DNA of 10,878 nucleotides from a virus (taxonomy: Duplodnaviria; Heunggongvirae; Uroviricota; Caudoviricetes): IMG/VR virus record IMGVR_UViG_2908567220_000005. One strand, written 5' to 3'. Below the pieces are notes generated by a model. That model did no database searches. It had not been told where the DNA came from and saw nothing but the letters and a program-made list of their open reading frames with translations. The position numbers and the translations under genes are program-made. Below are positions 2,147 to 10,818 of the stretch, in pieces (the stretch's first letter is position 1; the number at the start of each line of letters is the position of its first letter).

Positions 2147-2245
2147 AACGCCCCTTAGAACTGTATAAAACAACAGTTATTATAGTTTCACAAATAGCAA
2201 TATTTATCACCGTAATTGCAAAATATGAAACAAATAGCACAAAAA
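2147..2245 (-). promoter_or_regulatory. Candidate promoter/operator of the RHH-protease operon inside an AT-rich stretch
   Basis: Exact TATAAT on the minus strand at 2179..2184, about 30 nt upstream of the ATG. Direct 10-bp repeat ACAAATAGCA at 2190..2199 and 2230..2239 flanks the -35 area and is a plausible operator for the RHH protein. No convincing -35 hexamer found. The AT-rich stretch 2161..2260 may double as the origin's DNA-unwinding element. Confidence 0.3.
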
Positions 2246-2313
2246 AATGCCGCCGCTCAGTAGCTGGTGGCATCGTTCTGTGTGTCAAGTTTTGACAAGT
2301 TTCGTTTTAAGCT

Positions 2314-2343
2314 CACCCCCCCCATAGAATCTTTTTGGGGGTG
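2314..2343. other. G/C-stem hairpin (CACCCCC-N16-GGGGGTG) within the putative origin region
   Basis: Perfect 7-bp inverted repeat 2314..2320 / 2337..2343. Not followed by a U-run on either strand, so it is not a canonical intrinsic terminator. Confidence 0.3.
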
Positions 2344-2349
2344 TAATAT

Positions 2350-2591
2350 CCCTACCAATCCCTACTAACTGGCTCATGCCACGAATGGCAAGGCTTTCAG
2401 ACTGGTAGGCATTCAATTTTGTTGCCCTACATAACCCTACTTATCCCTACTAAATCACTTCAACGGCATTTTACTGCCTGTTTTATTTGGTAGGGATATG
2501 TAGGGATAAGTAGGGATAAAAATATATATCCCTACCTAGTTTAAAGCCTTGCTACGTCTGGCCTCGTTTCGTTTTTAGTAGGGCAGTAGGG
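2350..2591. repeat. Iteron array (CCCTAC / GTAGGG core, about 11 copies), putative replication origin (ori/crr-like) for the adjacent primase-helicase
   Basis: CCCTAC at 2350..2355 and 2360..2365. Three copies in 10-bp phase at 2425..2430, 2435..2440 and 2445..2450. Three inverted copies GTAGGGATA in 10-bp phase at 2490..2498, 2500..2508 and 2510..2518. CCCTAC at 2530..2535. GTAGGG at 2578..2583 and 2586..2591. The array sits immediately 3' of the primase stop (2613..2615). Confidence 0.6.
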
Positions 2592-2612
2592 ATAAGTGCC
2601 GCCGTAAAAGTT

Positions 2613-5054
2613 TCAATCATCACTCTGCCCGCTCTCCACACCGTAAGCGCGTGGCATGAACTCCTCAGCCTTCTCGTTATAGCCAACGTTGGTTTGCGCT
2701 CTGCCGTTAATGCTTCTCGTCAGGTAGCTGGCTCGGTACTCTTTTGCTGCTGATTTTATGGCGCGTGAAAACTTATTGACGGAAAGCGGTTTACCCAAAC
2801 CGTGATACTCCATAAACGCCAGATAAAGATGATAAAGATACGTCCTCGGCTCTGGCTGGCCTGCCCATGTACCTCCGCCCATCATCATGCCTTTGGGTTC
2901 GTTCATGAAAAAAAGCGTCGCACACATATCGACAACCGGATCCGTGCCGCGTTTAACCTCTAGCGCCTCCTGCGAATCGCGCTGCTCTAGTAATAGTGCC
3001 TTTGCTTTGTTCTGGTCGGCAAAGGTGGTTAGCAGGTGGCGGATAATCACCGGGATTTCTCGCCTGATTTTTGCGGTTAAATCCGGGTCTTTGTCTGCGT
3101 CTGATACCGGGTTATTAAACGGGAATATCACGCGGCGGCGGGCAATGCCCCCGTTTCGCTCCGTGAATGTCATCGGCTCGTTATTGGTTGCCATAACAAC
3201 GGCATTTATCACGGTTGTGAACTGCTTTTCATATTTCCCATCAATCTCTACCGGATCGCCGCCCGTAATGGCTTTAATCCCCGCACCCTCTCCAACATAG
3301 CGGGTCTGGTCAGGCATAATAATCAGGCTTTTTCCTACGAACTGCGCCCGTCCCCGTGCGGTGTCCAGCGTCATCATGCTACCGCTGGCGGTGTTGTGTT
3401 CACCTGCCAGCGTGGTTGCTATGCTGCTGAATACGGATTTCCCACTGCCGCCCTCGCCAGTTATCTCAATGAATAGCTGCCAGTCGTGACGCTTCGCCAG
3501 CACCATAAACAAGGCTGCTTTGATACGCTCGGCCTTATGATGGTCGCCAGCCGTTGCATGATTCAGCCAACGGGTAAAATTGGGGGCGCTGGTGGTAATA
3601 TTTTCCCCCGGCGCTGGCGGGGTGTAGGTGATCCCATTGTGGTTCATCAGCCAGTTACCCGGCGAATGGGCGGAAAACGTCTGCGTAGCGAGGTCATAAA
3701 CGCCGTTATCAAAACCAATCAGATCCCCGCTCCGCTCACCAATTACCGGTATTTGCAGCTTCATGGTTGCGACAACCGATTTAATCCCCTTTTCGGTGTA
3801 GTGGGCTTCGTGCTCGTCGAAAATTGCCACCATAACCCTTTCTAATTCGCTGCCTGGTAGCTTCACCCATACGCCAGATTCGTAGCAGTAAACAGTGCCA
3901 CTATCAGGGTTAACCGCCAACATATCCCATCGAGATGAAAGCAACCGCGCTTTCTGGCTGGCTGCCATTTGTGCAATATCTCCGACATCGGCTTTACGGC
4001 GGGATTTACCGCCGTCAATGGCTTGCAATCGCGGTTTCACGGCTTCCCCTTGAATCTGGTACATCGAATCGTTAAACGCAGCCGTAGCGACTTCCAGCCC
4101 GTTTTGCTGGCGGTAGTCGTCCCAGTCGGCTTTGTAGTCTGTCGGCGGCAGCGCCACCCAGCCAGCCACGGATAAGGCGGCTTTCTCTGCGGCATCTTTG
4201 CCCGTGTTCGCCTGTTCGTCCTGCTGGTGGTCGTTATCTGCGGCAATGATAATCTGCACGGCTGGATATATCCGGCGCATCACTTCGGCAACGGGTAGCA
4301 GGTTGCCCGCGTCAATTGCTGCCACTGCCAGCGCGTCCGGGCGCATCAGGTGAACTGAAAGGGCCGTCGCCAGCCCCTCGGCAATTAAAACGCTCTGCGG
4401 CGATTCTGGCGCGTTTACGGCGTGATATGCCCCGCGCTTTGCTGAACCTGTCAGGAGTCGTTTATCTCCCTGCGGCGTGATGGTCTGCGCCGCCACTACT
4501 GCGCCGGATTCATCCACCAGCGGCAGGAGTAGCGAACCATCAGACATAACCGGGTAATTAAACCCGGTCAGCCCTTTTGATTGCAGGTAATCAGATTCGC
4601 CCTGTGTGACACTCTGGCGCATTCCGGCATACAGACGGGCAAACGTAGCCCTTCGCTGCTCTGCGTCCTCTGCTGCCTGTTTCTGGCGCTCCTGCTCACG
4701 CTGCTGGCGGTCAGCTTCCAGTTGCTCTCTTCTATGGCTCGCTGCCACCGGGTCGGTTTGCGCTGCCCGGTAATCAATACCCAGCACGTCAGCGGCAAGC
4801 TGTGCCGCCTCCGTAGTGTCGCAGTTGTTAACCCGCTTGATTAAATCCAGCCCGTCACCAGCGCCACACTGGTTGCAGATAAAGCTACCGCGCCCGTTGT
4901 CGTCGAATCTGAAACGGTCTTTTCCACCACATGCAGGGCATGGAGAATGGCGGCGCGATGAATCAGGAACGTCGATAGACAGGCCAGCCAGCACATAAGG
5001 CCATTTACCAGCGGCGGCGGTGGTCACTTCGCGGATAAGGTCGATATTACGCAT
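2613..5054 (-). CDS. P4 alpha-type bifunctional DNA primase / helicase (813 aa)
   Basis: ATG at 5052..5054 with SD GAGGGAG; TGA stop at 2613..2615. N-terminal Cys4 zinc-finger (CPACGGKDRFRFDDNGRGSFICNQCG), a central Toprim-like acidic region (VLIAEGLATA ... IIIAADNDH), and a C-terminal P-loop NTPase with Walker A (EITGEGGSGKSV). Size and layout match P4 alpha-like primases, followed by iterons. Confidence 0.9.
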   Translation of the reverse strand: MRNIDLIREVTTAAAGKWPYVLAGLSIDVPDSSRRHSPCPACGGKDRFRFDDNGRGSFICNQCGAGDGLDLIKRVNNCDTTEAAQLAADVLGIDYRAAQTDPVAASHRREQLEADRQQREQERQKQAAEDAEQRRATFARLYAGMRQSVTQGESDYLQSKGLTGFNYPVMSDGSLLLPLVDESGAVVAAQTITPQGDKRLLTGSAKRGAYHAVNAPESPQSVLIAEGLATALSVHLMRPDALAVAAIDAGNLLPVAEVMRRIYPAVQIIIAADNDHQQDEQANTGKDAAEKAALSVAGWVALPPTDYKADWDDYRQQNGLEVATAAFNDSMYQIQGEAVKPRLQAIDGGKSRRKADVGDIAQMAASQKARLLSSRWDMLAVNPDSGTVYCYESGVWVKLPGSELERVMVAIFDEHEAHYTEKGIKSVVATMKLQIPVIGERSGDLIGFDNGVYDLATQTFSAHSPGNWLMNHNGITYTPPAPGENITTSAPNFTRWLNHATAGDHHKAERIKAALFMVLAKRHDWQLFIEITGEGGSGKSVFSSIATTLAGEHNTASGSMMTLDTARGRAQFVGKSLIIMPDQTRYVGEGAGIKAITGGDPVEIDGKYEKQFTTVINAVVMATNNEPMTFTERNGGIARRRVIFPFNNPVSDADKDPDLTAKIRREIPVIIRHLLTTFADQNKAKALLLEQRDSQEALEVKRGTDPVVDMCATLFFMNEPKGMMMGGGTWAGQPEPRTYLYHLYLAFMEYHGLGKPLSVNKFSRAIKSAAKEYRASYLTRSINGRAQTNVGYNEKAEEFMPRAYGVESGQSDD

Positions 5055-6319: not shown

Positions 6320-6525
6320 AGCCTCTATACAGTGAATTTTGAATTCACCACCAAGAGACGCCAATCTCAGACTGGTGGTGAGCTGAACAAGGTTGGCGTA
6401 ACCGGCCTGTATAGACACCGGCCTTCCTTTCGGAAGCCTCATCCAGCCCACCATAATTTGGGTGCGCAGGAATTTTGCCGACAAAAAAACACGCTTAGTG
6501 CGTGTCGGCACTATACAGGTTATCG
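6320..6525 (-). ncRNA. Structured leader / candidate antisense immunity RNA (phage P4 CI-like or P1 C4-like)
   Basis: Plus-strand CTATACAG at 6325..6332 and 6511..6518, with its reverse complement CTGTATAG at 6407..6414. On the minus-strand transcript the order is CUGUAUAG ... CUAUACAG ... CUGUAUAG. The middle copy sits in the loop of a CCGG-stem hairpin (6401..6423). The last copy abuts the SD of the Icd-like gene. Other hairpins: GTGAATT-N3-AATTCAC at 6332..6348, CACCACCA-N19-TGGTGGTG at 6346..6380, CTTCC-TTTC-GGAAG near 6424..6437. Boundaries and strand are inferred. Confidence 0.4.
6481..6505 (-). terminator. Candidate intrinsic terminator inside the leader (6-bp stem, 5-nt loop, U7 tract on the minus strand)
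   Basis: Plus-strand ACACGC (6489..6494) / GCGTGT (6500..6505) inverted repeat preceded by A7 (6482..6488). On the minus strand this reads hairpin then UUUUUUU. It lies between the first and second 8-mer elements. Confidence 0.4.
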
Positions 6526-6833
6526 GGACGCCAATCCCGGCACCTGATTTTGCAGGTGCGCTATAACCATAAACCGGGTTGGCGATAGTCGGCAAGCCCT
6601 TTTTTATGGACTCGCAAAACTCACCTTCGCGCGTGCGCGTACTGGTCGCAAAACTCGAAAAAAACTTAGGATTTATTAGGATTCGCAGCCCAATTCTCAG
6701 CCCAGAAAACGCCTCTAAAATGTCGTCATTTGTCGCAACGGCGCGGCGATGAATGTCAGGTTTTGACAGGTTGTAAGGGTTAACATTTGTTAACAGGCTA
6801 GCCAGATTAAAGGCTTCTTTCTGGGCGGCAGGT

Positions 6834-7016
6834 TCATTCAGTATCACGGCGCACCTCCACGAACTCCTTAACGAATCTCTCCAAAGGCTGAACACATGGC
6901 GACTGATAGCCCTCGCGGTAAAAGGTCACTCGGTTATGCTCGACGCGCTGTACGGTCACTACAGCCCCGTGCGAATCCTTGTAACGGCTTCCCGGCATCG
7001 GATTATGGTTACGCAT
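6834..7016 (-). CDS. DUF4222-like small protein (60 aa)
   Basis: ATG at 7014..7016. Sequence MRNHNPMPGSRYKDSHGAVVTVQRVEHNRVTFYREGYQSPCVQPLERFVKEFVEV follows the pattern I recall for DUF4222 prophage proteins (YRD..G..VTV..V...RV.F.R.GY). Overlaps the 3' end of the antirepressor gene by 8 nt. Confidence 0.6.
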   Translation of the reverse strand: MRNHNPMPGSRYKDSHGAVVTVQRVEHNRVTFYREGYQSPCVQPLERFVKEFVEVRRDTE

Positions 7017-8595: not shown

Positions 8596-9546
8596 TTAAC
8601 TATCCACTTTGCCATTTGCCGCAGATCGTAGATGTTTAAGAATTACATCTTCATTAGTTATCATAAGTGGTGGAACTTCGTCTAAATGACGAACAAGACA
8701 GTCACGCCACTTCTCAGGGCTTATTTCTTTCCTTTCTCCCCTGCATTCATTTGGATACTTACTAAGTATATAAATTGCAGATTTTAATAGTTTCTCCCTA
8801 TTGACTGCGTACCGTTCGGCACGTTTATTAACTTTTAGCGTATTTATATCATTGGATAACTTGTTTGCGGATGGTTTGTGCATGGGGCTGTCATAAATAT
8901 ATTTTCCTCCATTTATAAGAAGATTGTATTCATAGTCAGTTATATACATTTTATTTCGGCTTATTTCATACCAGCCGTCAATATAAAAAGCTCCGATTTC
9001 ATAATTATTCGATTTGCTAAACTCGTCACATCTCGGAGGCATCAGTTCGCATACAGAGATCTCCCAATCATCCCATTCTGATAGCTCCCGCTCATCGTTA
9101 TCTATGAACGCAGACGGAATTGCTAATAGACCGTTCCATCTTTCGATATCTCTTTCATCCTTCCCAACATTGTATCGCTCTATAACTGAGAAATGTTCTG
9201 ATTTGTATGAAAACCTCATAAAATACATATGGTTATCGCTATTTTTATAATCAAGCGGTGATAAGCCATATGATTCGAGATTATCTGCCTCATTGCTCAG
9301 ATCAAGAAGATAATTCTCATGTACTGCTTTTGTATCTATATGAAAAATACTATCTGTTTCAACTTTAAGTAATTCTGGATCGGCATCTTCATTTTTGGGG
9401 TAATGGTAAAACAATTCAATAGGTGGAATTTTTATACATATTTCTAAAACCCCAATTGCTGCATAGTGTATTAAATCGGATACTTCACATCCGGCCAGTT
9501 TGGCTGCTTTATCCAAAGAATAATATTTATGCGCAGGTAATTTCAT
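8596..9546 (-). CDS. Hypothetical AT-rich cargo protein (316 aa) between integrase and alpA; possible N-terminal HTH-like region
   Basis: ATG at 9544..9546 with SD GAGAGGAAAG, only 18 bp after the integrase stop. Clearly lower GC than flanking genes (by eye roughly one-third GC versus about one-half). N-terminus YYSLDKAAKLAGCEVSDLIHYAAIGVLE looks HTH-like; the remainder is acidic and aromatic-rich with no motif I recognise. Confidence 0.65.
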   Translation of the reverse strand: MKLPAHKYYSLDKAAKLAGCEVSDLIHYAAIGVLEICIKIPPIELFYHYPKNEDADPELLKVETDSIFHIDTKAVHENYLLDLSNEADNLESYGLSPLDYKNSDNHMYFMRFSYKSEHFSVIERYNVGKDERDIERWNGLLAIPSAFIDNDERELSEWDDWEISVCELMPPRCDEFSKSNNYEIGAFYIDGWYEISRNKMYITDYEYNLLINGGKYIYDSPMHKPSANKLSNDINTLKVNKRAERYAVNREKLLKSAIYILSKYPNECRGERKEISPEKWRDCLVRHLDEVPPLMITNEDVILKHLRSAANGKVDS

Positions 9547-9564
9547 TATGAATCTTTCCTCTCA

Positions 9565-10818
9565 TCATGCTCTGATTGGCGTTACGTTGTAGTCTTTTCC
9601 GCTTTCCAGTGCCACCAGCAAATCACACCACTGCGCCAGCGCCGCTTTACGCTCATCAAAATACTGGTGACGGTTATAGATACCCTCCACACCTTTAATT
9701 TTGTGATTAAGGCATCTTTCTGCGACTACCGGATCAACGCCCAGCGCTGCTAAATGAGTACGTGCGGTGCGTCGGAAGTCGTGAATCGTGAAATTAGGCA
9801 CATCCGGCATTTCGGCGCGAACCTTAGCCAGTGCTACGGGCAGGGTGCTTTCCTGAATATGGGGGATCATGCGGTTTTGCATCTTTCTGGCTGGCAGTAC
9901 CCATGCGCTGTTGCATGAGAACGTTTTAAGCTCTCTCAGCCATTCGACGGCTGGCGGTGCTAATGGGATGTCTATAGCGTCGCCGTTTTTGCTGCGTTCC
10001 TCTGGCAAGCGCCATACGGCTTTATCAAAATCGAACTCCTCCCAGCGGGCGGCGCATAACTCCATTTTGCGGACGCATAACGCTAACAGTAATTTGAACG
10101 TGATTTCGTTCTGGCGACTGAATCCCTTAGCCGTGCGCATGGCTTTGAATAGCTGGATTAACTCATCGCGGGTTAACCAGCGGTCACGGGCAACTTCTTT
10201 CCCTCCGGCGTCTGCCACCTCAAAGGCTGAACAGGGGTTAATCTCTAGCGCGTGCCGTTTGATTCCGTAGTCGAATATGCGGCGCGTCCATCTCAGCACG
10301 TCCGTTGCTATGGTCGGCGCTCCACGGTCAACAATACCTTTCAGCATGTCATCGATATGGCGCGGTTTCACGTCCTCTACCTTCATGCTGCCAATGCAGG
10401 GGTTTATATCTTTGTCGATACGGCGGCGGAGTATATCGGGGTGCTTCCAGCGCGGGAGGATCTGACGCTCAAAGTATTCAGCGGCAAGCTCTGAAACGCG
10501 CATAGCGTTCTTCTCTGCTTCCATCTTCGCTAGTGCTTCGGTTTTGCGCTTCTGCTTCTCTCCTGCAACGTCATAGCCCAGCGCAACGCGAGCCGATAGC
10601 TCTTTGGCTGTCTCTCTGGCCTTTGATAGTGATAGCTCGCTATACGAACCAATTAGCATGGCGCGGGACTTCCCTGCGAGTTTATAGCGGAATCTCCATG
10701 TGGGGGTTTTGTCGGCTTCACGGTAACGTAGGTATAAACCGTTACCGTCTGCCCGCCCCTCGAATCGCTCTCCGCTCTTAATCCATGCGCGGATCTGCAT
10801 GTCTGTTAGTTTTGGCAT
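9565..10818 (-). CDS. int: P4-family tyrosine integrase (site-specific recombinase)
   Basis: Preferred start is the ATG at 10816..10818 (MPKLTDMQIRAW...), giving the typical P4-type N-terminal arm-binding region (GNGLYLRYR ... WRFRYK). The track ORF extends in frame to an ATG at the window edge (10876..10878). C-terminal catalytic domain has HDFRRT (HxxR) and a conserved Tyr near the C-terminus (GIYNRHQY). TGA stop at 9565..9567. Confidence 0.9.
   Translation of the reverse strand: MPKLTDMQIRAWIKSGERFEGRADGNGLYLRYREADKTPTWRFRYKLAGKSRAMLIGSYSELSLSKARETAKELSARVALGYDVAGEKQKRKTEALAKMEAEKNAMRVSELAAEYFERQILPRWKHPDILRRRIDKDINPCIGSMKVEDVKPRHIDDMLKGIVDRGAPTIATDVLRWTRRIFDYGIKRHALEINPCSAFEVADAGGKEVARDRWLTRDELIQLFKAMRTAKGFSRQNEITFKLLLALCVRKMELCAARWEEFDFDKAVWRLPEERSKNGDAIDIPLAPPAVEWLRELKTFSCNSAWVLPARKMQNRMIPHIQESTLPVALAKVRAEMPDVPNFTIHDFRRTARTHLAALGVDPVVAERCLNHKIKGVEGIYNRHQYFDERKAALAQWCDLLVALESGKDYNVTPIRA

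Follow-up and report, generated by a model that had tools for sequence, protein, structure and literature searches.

A dyad-symmetric array of twelve iterons behind a P4-alpha-like primase-helicase gene is the probable replication origin of a PICI-type phage satellite in Escherichia coli

The virus record IMGVR_UViG_2908567220_000005 of IMG/VR, analysed here over a stretch of 10,878 nucleotides (hereafter referred to as the window), contains a gene encoding a P4-alpha-like primase-helicase (hereafter Pri-Rep) and, directly 3' of it, an array of short repeated sites, or iterons, at 2350-2591. We interpret this array, with a probability of about 0.8, as the replication origin of a phage satellite of the phage-inducible chromosomal island (PICI) type integrated in the Escherichia coli chromosome, and a conserved box flanking the array, down to approximately position 2316, probably belongs to the same origin. 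This interpretation is supported by a common site scaffold, by the way in which the iteron word tracks the DNA-binding domain of the adjacent initiator, by an experiment on the origin of the published island EcCICFT073 and by the PICI-like nature of the element. The type of origin is known and its iteron specificity is new, which does not alter the 2018 account of PICI replication in its general lines.

The window holds 13 copies of the hexamer CCCTAC/GTAGGG, where dinucleotide shuffles of the whole window yield 3.0 on average and never more than 8, and 11 of these 13 copies fall within 2350-2591; among 2000 mononucleotide shuffles, four was the upper limit for any span of 242 nt. On the plus strand, CCCTAC starts at 2350, 2360, 2425, 2435, 2445 and 2530, and GTAGGG at 2490, 2500, 2510, 2578 and 2586. 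A preliminary description of this DNA had reported about 11 such cores immediately 3' of the primase-helicase gene, including two triplets of exact 10-bp spacing and opposite orientation, and both the count of exact copies and the coordinates of the triplets agree with it. The single copy at 2530 has its mirror image in a twelfth, degenerate iteron (GTAGGC, 2405-2410), whose position holds an intact CCCTAC in E. coli 873.10 and in Shimwellia. The full iteron unit spans about 10 bp and reads TATCCCTACY.

Taken together, the 12 sites form a 2-1-3/3-1-2 scaffold with two-fold symmetry around a centre at about 2470, in which every site has a mirror partner. Read in the sense of the primase gene, the sites start 22, 30, 78, 98, 108, 118, 163, 173, 183, 203, 248 and 258 nt past the stop codon, with orientations << > <<< / >>> < >>, the 22 nt of the first site being the whole distance between gene and array. 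Each single site stands exactly 20 bp from its own triplet, for a phasing of 10/20 bp, and a pair with 8-9 bp spacing occurs in relatives at the place equivalent to that of the primase-proximal pair. The array is an imperfect palindrome with 68-nt arms and not a tandem duplication; the strong fold of 2380-2560 as single-stranded DNA (z = -9.3) is due to this dyad. A nearest-neighbour stability profile of 2100-2710 locates the least stable 30-mer at 2516-2545, inside the array. A T/A-rich tract is present at the position of 2516-2529 in all eight aligned origins, and the central spacer varies from 32 to 80 nt in length among relatives. Neither a DnaA box (up to one mismatch) nor an IHF consensus was identified in 2100-2700, which also has no blastn match in the phage collection, and no Rfam family or tRNA was detected in the focal region. 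The outer spacers (2366-2404 and 2536-2577) hold motifs other than iterons, among which GCAAGGCTTT(A/C)A is part of a large palindrome and CTGAAAGCC...GCCATT...TGGC is common to the window array and the EcCICFT073 origin.

The gene preceding the array is annotated in E. coli genomes as 'phage/plasmid primase, P4 family'. Pfam searches identify Zn-ribbon, Toprim, D5_N, DUF5906 and Pox_D5 domains in its product, which comprises an SF3 helicase and a C-terminal DNA-binding domain and is a full-length homologue of the P4 alpha protein (38.8% identity over residues 14-803). Homology search with phmmer matched residues 704-796 to the origin-binding domain of P4 alpha (PDB 1KA8; E 4e-8), and the order of domains known for P4 alpha, namely primase, SF3 helicase and C-terminal winged helix (PMC2777425), is also that of Pri-Rep.

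Relatives of the primase were collected by scanning one genome per species, which provided 79 loci, and repeats were sought in the 600 nt past each stop codon. Most of the 79 loci carry a strongly repeated short word behind the primase, and this word varies by locus. CCCTAC/GTAGGG is used in Kluyvera, Atlantibacter, Buttiauxella, Shimwellia, one contaminated assembly and Aeromonas allosaccharophila, and GTAGAG, GGTAGA or GTAGAT in Rosenbergiella, Tolumonas, Aeromonas molluscorum and Yersinia pekkanenii. The published origins of EcCICFT073, EcCIATCC25922 and EcCIIHE3034 use GGTAGA, while GGTGAACA, the type I octamer of P4, is found in Tatumella, Rahnella, Erwinia, Serratia and Zobellella, as well as in the published EcCIRM13514 and EcCI224; other words occur in Xenorhabdus, Proteus and Yersinia pestis. 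GTAGGG is used by none of the six published E. coli PICIs checked, and six IMG/VR contigs feature a primase (82-99% identity) followed by a GTAGGG cluster. The positions and orientations of the sites superimpose across word classes and on the origins of EcCICFT073, EcCIATCC25922, EcCIIHE3034, EcCIRM13514 and EcCI224, so that a comparison of iterons among related elements, proposed in the preliminary description, recovers the same scaffold filled with other words (GGTAGA, GTAGAG, GGTGAACA). Divergent relatives within the GTAGGG group retain 89-90% identity in the site cores, versus 53-62% in the remaining array columns (spacers), and the Rosenbergiella array has changed in concert, with each of its 12 sites reading (C/T)TCTAC. 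The linkage of array and primase holds across genera, while the neighbouring modules vary.

The iteron word follows the identity of the C-terminal winged-helix domain and not that of the helicase domain, as seen when both are measured against the window protein (loci L008 and L053 were left out of these identity comparisons). The Tatumella relative, with a helicase 79% identical and a binding domain only 35% identical, uses GGTGAACA, and that of Rahnella (68% and 33%, respectively) uses GTGAACA. Conversely, an Aeromonas relative (L038) with a helicase of 56% and a binding domain of 61% identity uses GTAGGG, and the Rosenbergiella protein (79% and 78%) is accompanied by GTAGAG, a word differing by one base. 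Judged from these sequences, this is the pattern to be expected if the sites are read by the initiator's own binding domain and swapped with that domain as a cassette. Within the domain (residues 704-796), some positions are candidates for determining specificity: FMEYHG in users of GTAGGG versus FMDYHG in users of GTAGAG, and (S/Q/A)Y(L/C)(T/S)R versus EYKTR in the same two groups. A literature search on P4-like satellite origins returned nothing on iteron diversity, and searches with the iteron strings GTAGGGATA and TATCCCTAC returned unrelated matches only, mostly primer sequences. These loci constitute a natural swap series, in which one 12-site scaffold is filled by three or more word families and every family has a winged-helix domain of its own; the series could be used to study how initiators read DNA and which satellites can or cannot cross-replicate (incompatibility or independence).

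The closest experimental counterpart is EcCICFT073, in which a rep-ori cassette maintains a temperature-sensitive plasmid and deletion of ori strongly reduces maintenance (PMC6092414). In the same work, the PICI origin was assigned to the region 3' of pri-rep, with two iteron sets around an AT-rich region (PMC6092414), and the window array has both the location and the opposed iteron sets around an AT-rich segment. Every site of the window array was aligned onto a site of the EcCICFT073 origin, which likewise lies directly 3' of pri-rep, presents the 12-site 2-1-3/3-1-2 scaffold with T/A tracts between single and triple sites, and consists of a single cluster in an island with gene content of equal type. 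EcCICFT073 also has a distal A4CTTTT...G-run box and the CTGAAAGCC...GCCATT motif, and its helicase plus binding domains are 55% identical to Pri-Rep (residues 360-800). The two systems differ in the iteron word (GTAGGG in the window, GGTAGA in EcCICFT073) and in the N-terminal primase, which is of the P4-alpha type in Pri-Rep (Zn-ribbon plus Toprim) and only about 20% identical to the EcCICFT073 N-terminus. They also differ in composition: the segment from the proximal pair to the single site is 43% G+C in the window and not AT-rich, unlike that of EcCICFT073, and the AT-richness of the array is weaker than in EcCICFT073 and EcCIRM13514. Finally, EcCICFT073 has capsid genes, of which none were found in the window or in the complete element (locus L001). 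The 1KA8 match, the tracking of word and binding domain and the EcCICFT073 layout together uphold the earlier proposal that this region is a cis replication site of an alpha-type initiator.

For the comparison with P4 we relied on the annotated record X51522, PDB 1KA8 and PMC2777425. In P4, too, iterons of both orientations are clustered immediately past the 3' end of alpha. The P4 octamer had been given in the preliminary description as TGTTCACC, correctly, and this octamer also sits behind close relatives of Pri-Rep; it differs from the (TAT)CCCTAC of the window, bearing out the suggested distinct specificity. The proposed likeness to the P4 ori/crr arrangement, on the other hand, could not be maintained. 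P4 is bipartite, with crr at 4291-4590 and ori, holding six more sites, at 9086-9809 (X51522 coordinates), about 4.7 kb apart, and its crr consists of two direct 120-bp repeats of five sites each, where the window array is a 12-site dyad. A cluster search returned two clusters in P4, used as control, and one each in the window, in L001 and in five published PICIs. The element therefore shares with P4 an alpha-type primase-helicase with a C-terminal winged-helix origin-binding domain, and has neither the type I iteron TGTTCACC nor a second cluster nor the two direct 120-bp crr repeats.

The P4 comparison also bears on an alternative in which the array is a crr-like enhancer, bound by Pri-Rep and needed in cis, with synthesis starting elsewhere, for instance at an iteron-free site resembling P4 ori2 in or near the primase gene. 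The location of P4 crr directly 3' of alpha, the resemblance of the 120-bp crr unit (one site, two reversed sites, a gap of about 35 nt and two sites) to the centre of the array, and the full-length homology of Pri-Rep to alpha all speak for this alternative. We nonetheless regard it as unlikely, since neither the window nor L001 has a second iteron cluster of the sort that the P4 control reveals, a single cluster is the rule in all PICI-type elements checked, and in EcCICFT073 pri-rep plus the adjacent array sufficed for plasmid maintenance (PMC6092414). The single cluster and the EcCICFT073 experiment thus favour a self-contained origin over a crr-like site.

The array does not resemble a classical iteron-plasmid origin of the RepA, pi or TrfA type, with direct iterons of 17-22 bp, DnaA boxes and AT-rich 13-mers, its units being of about 10 bp and arranged in inverted sets. 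The origins of the Staphylococcus aureus pathogenicity islands (SaPIs) SaPIbov1 and SaPI1, which are Gram-positive PICIs, lie directly 3' of rep and comprise two sets of short iterons around an AT-rich segment, with matched Rep and ori specificity (Ubeda et al.; summarised in PMC6092414). This likeness is one of description; neither the host nor the initiator sequence is related to that of the element, and the AT-rich centre is larger in the SaPI origins.

If the array is the origin, replication could proceed as follows. After induction, Pri-Rep would bind the 12 TATCCCTACY sites through its C-terminal winged helix, and the two mirror sets of six sites, phased at 10/20 bp, would direct assembly of the SF3 helicase to both sides of the dyad centre. 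The DNA would then open at low-stability tracts within the array (2451-2489, or the A/T tracts at 2516-2529 and 2411-2424), whereupon the N-terminal Toprim primase would prime synthesis for extension by a host polymerase, without DnaA. SV40 large T and papillomavirus E1 also combine an SF3 helicase with an origin-binding domain and act at inverted sets of short sites around the centre of two hexamers. A tentative and rather doubtful extension of the origin reading would make the 6 + 6 mirror scaffold the template for two head-to-head Pri-Rep hexamers, as a counterpart of the SV40 and papillomavirus systems, with the distal box as helicase-loading or first-primer site for all word classes. The analogy is purely functional, there being no sequence relationship, and a double hexamer is not known for any P4-alpha-like protein at these origins. 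If the two-hexamer arrangement were true, these satellites would provide a small origin-initiator cassette that can be reprogrammed and whose recognition code can be read.

Several observations weigh against the assignment of the array as origin. At the same position 3' of alpha, P4 crr is annotated in the P4 record as a required cis element and not as the start site, and sequence by itself does not distinguish a start site from an enhancer. Binding to GTAGGG, melting and initiation by Pri-Rep are steps that we infer for this element, together with stoichiometry, melting site, replication direction and DnaA independence. The AT-richness of the central spacer is moderate only (33% G+C), and the conserved A5GATT...G-run box described below falls outside what the origin model explains. 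Lastly, a Serratia fonticola relative (L007) has no repeat array behind its primase (6380-6900), and may represent an element that has decayed or is organised differently, and several Xenorhabdus loci have just three or four clear repeats.

Two further explanations for the array deserve consideration. Plasmid iterons double as control elements, and the array might serve mainly for copy-number control (handcuffing), for autoregulation or as operators of the downstream operon, with Pri-Rep or some other protein of the island as the ligand. Since the interval from the primase stop codon to the array has no called terminator, and a terminator-like hairpin first appears past the array (2241-2274), transcription of the primase operon probably runs through the array at its 3' end. 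However, the array is located 3' of a gene and not at a promoter, its word co-varies with the binding domain of the initiator, and the downstream genes vary among array-sharing elements, which makes a fixed operator role unlikely; any such role would in addition complement origin function instead of replacing it. We therefore consider a purely regulatory array improbable. Short repeated dyad sites are also known at centromere-like and terminase-binding sites, and the array could in principle be a packaging (cos/pac), partition or recombination site unconnected with replication. This appears the least probable of the explanations considered, as no partition or terminase genes adjoin the array, the integrase and the attachment site lie at the opposite end of the element, and the array remains linked to the primase across genera while neighbouring modules change. 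Under the origin reading, a function would be assigned to a 320-bp non-coding gap in an island carried by dozens of E. coli genomes, by other Enterobacterales and by Aeromonas. The coordinates of the features discussed are collected in Table 1.

Table 1. Features of the putative origin region and its surroundings (window coordinates).
Feature	Position	Strand	Remarks
Pri-Rep gene	2613..5054	-	813-aa P4-alpha-like primase-helicase
Winged-helix origin-binding domain codons	2667..2945	-	residues 704-796; putative reader of the iterons
Whole iteron array	2350..2591		putative replication origin; 12 sites, 2-1-3/3-1-2
Iteron pair, primase-proximal	2578..2591		GTAGGG on + at 2578, 2586; spacing 8 bp
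Single iteron	2530..2535		CCCTAC on +; 20 bp from neighbouring triplet; kept in all aligned relatives
A/T-only tract ATAAAAATATATAT	2516..2529		14 nt, between triplet and single iteron; candidate melting or bending site
Iteron triplet	2490..2515		GTAGGG on + at 2490, 2500, 2510
Central spacer	2451..2489		39 nt, 33% G+C; holds dyad centre; candidate melting site
Iteron triplet	2425..2450		CCCTAC on + at 2425, 2435, 2445
Degenerate iteron GTAGGC	2405..2410		mirror of 2530 site
Iteron pair, primase-distal	2350..2365		CCCTAC on + at 2350, 2360
Conserved non-iteron box, primase sense AAAAAGATTCTAT-GGGGGGGG	2316..2336	-	probable primase-distal origin edge; overlaps hairpin 2314-2343
Terminator-like hairpin + U7, primase-sense transcript	2241..2274	-	RNA fold; outside origin cassette
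AT-rich stretch, re-assigned	2161..2260	-	probable leader/regulatory region of 57-aa ORF (open reading frame; 1973-2146, -)

Two elements flanking the array had been counted as parts of the origin in the preliminary description, and in that role neither is supported. The first is a G/C hairpin, whose inverted repeat (CACCCCC at 2314-2320 and GGGGGTG at 2337-2343) is indeed present and folds, but which is not conserved beyond near-identical relatives, the array-side arm being absent from Buttiauxella and Rosenbergiella. What is conserved is the box on its distal side, A5GATT...G5-9, which occurs in fixed orientation 230-370 nt past the primase stop codon in 36 of 55 loci, whatever their iteron word. 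The possibility that the G-run is a ribosome-binding site (Shine-Dalgarno) was rejected because the distance from the box to the next ORF is highly variable, ranging from 1 to more than 300 nt.

The second element is the AT-rich stretch at 2161-2260, proposed as a DNA-unwinding element. Its composition is as described (31% G+C, versus 50% for the window), but its linkage lies elsewhere. The segment 2100-2300 is present in 485 E. coli genomes and the array in 78, with both occurring together in about 19. In most E. coli islands with a GTAGGG array, homology stops at approximately 2301, where the next gene begins, and the AT-rich stretch is absent. Elsewhere, the AT-rich segment follows an unrelated TOPRIM-DUF927 primase with its own origin, located 290-670 nt away and in one case separated from the segment by a whole ORF. 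The stretch therefore lies outside the origin cassette, as it travels with the module of the 57-aa ORF and not with the array, and its role as unwinding element was rejected on this linkage to the downstream module. For the design of origin constructs, inclusion of the AT-rich stretch and the hairpin is accordingly not warranted by the earlier reasoning, whereas the G-run box should probably be included.

The features of this stretch look like the end of the primase transcript followed by the leader of the next module. The stem of the hairpin at 2241-2274 is perfect in both L086 and L087, two loci with the TOPRIM-DUF927 primase. A perfect -10 element (TATAAT, 2179-2184, minus strand) without a -35 partner is preceded, just upstream, by a 17-nt inverted repeat (2185-2201/2215-2231), and a ribosome-binding site and an ATG follow at 2146 on the minus strand; the region 2179-2231 hence looks like an activator- or repressor-controlled promoter of the downstream module. 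A consensus promoter and terminator scan of 1900-2800 called no sites, and the hairpin with its U7 run and the -10 element, both read by eye, are weaker evidence. The start of the 57-aa ORF and its AT-rich leader form a mosaic module (2100-2300 in the window, 3501-3702 in L086 and 3501-3699 in L087), which elsewhere sits between the TOPRIM-DUF927 primase and genes for a phage DNA-ejection protein and a transglycosylase. The TOPRIM-DUF927 origin itself lies directly past that primase (about 3990-4125 in L086 and 4280-4400 in L087), and consists of three GTTGGTTCA sites, an AT-rich spacer of about 43 nt and three or four TGAACCAAC sites. Right at the end of homology near 2301, a direct repeat TGTCAAGTTT/TGACAAGTTT with a palindrome GTCAA...TTGAC is present at 2283-2302.

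The window is 99.8% identical to E. coli chromosomes, where the element occupies roughly 12 kb as an island flanked by yicC and dinD. All island genes lie on one strand and include an integrase, an AlpA-like helix-turn-helix protein (phrog_66), an AntA-family protein, an Ash/Icd-like region, DUF4222 and the primase, past which follow the array, the 57-aa ORF, a 223-aa ORF and PerC. An integrase, an AlpA-type regulator, genes on one strand and a PICI attachment locus such as yicC-dinD are PICI hallmarks, and such gene organisation defines the PICIs of Gram-negative bacteria (Fillol-Salom et al. 2018, ISME J, PMC6092414). The yicC-dinD locus is the attachment locus of EcCIRM13514, and PerC a known PICI accessory gene (PMC6092414). 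Identity of the element with EcCIRM13514 was rejected: that island shares the yicC-dinD location, but its primase is a different one of 607 aa and its repeats are GGTGAACA. The att core published for it, GAGCAGATTCAA, is absent from both L001, a complete island, and the window, and the common locus does not imply identity of the att sites. In a further difference from P4, no sid, psu or delta genes were found in the window or L001. Within the Ash/Icd-like ORF region, matches at the Rfam gathering level to C4 antisense RNA (6371-6458), isrK (6484-6559) and the c4 a1/b1 target (6520-6572) identify the minus-strand segment 6371-6572 as an RNA immunity cassette of the P1/P4 type.

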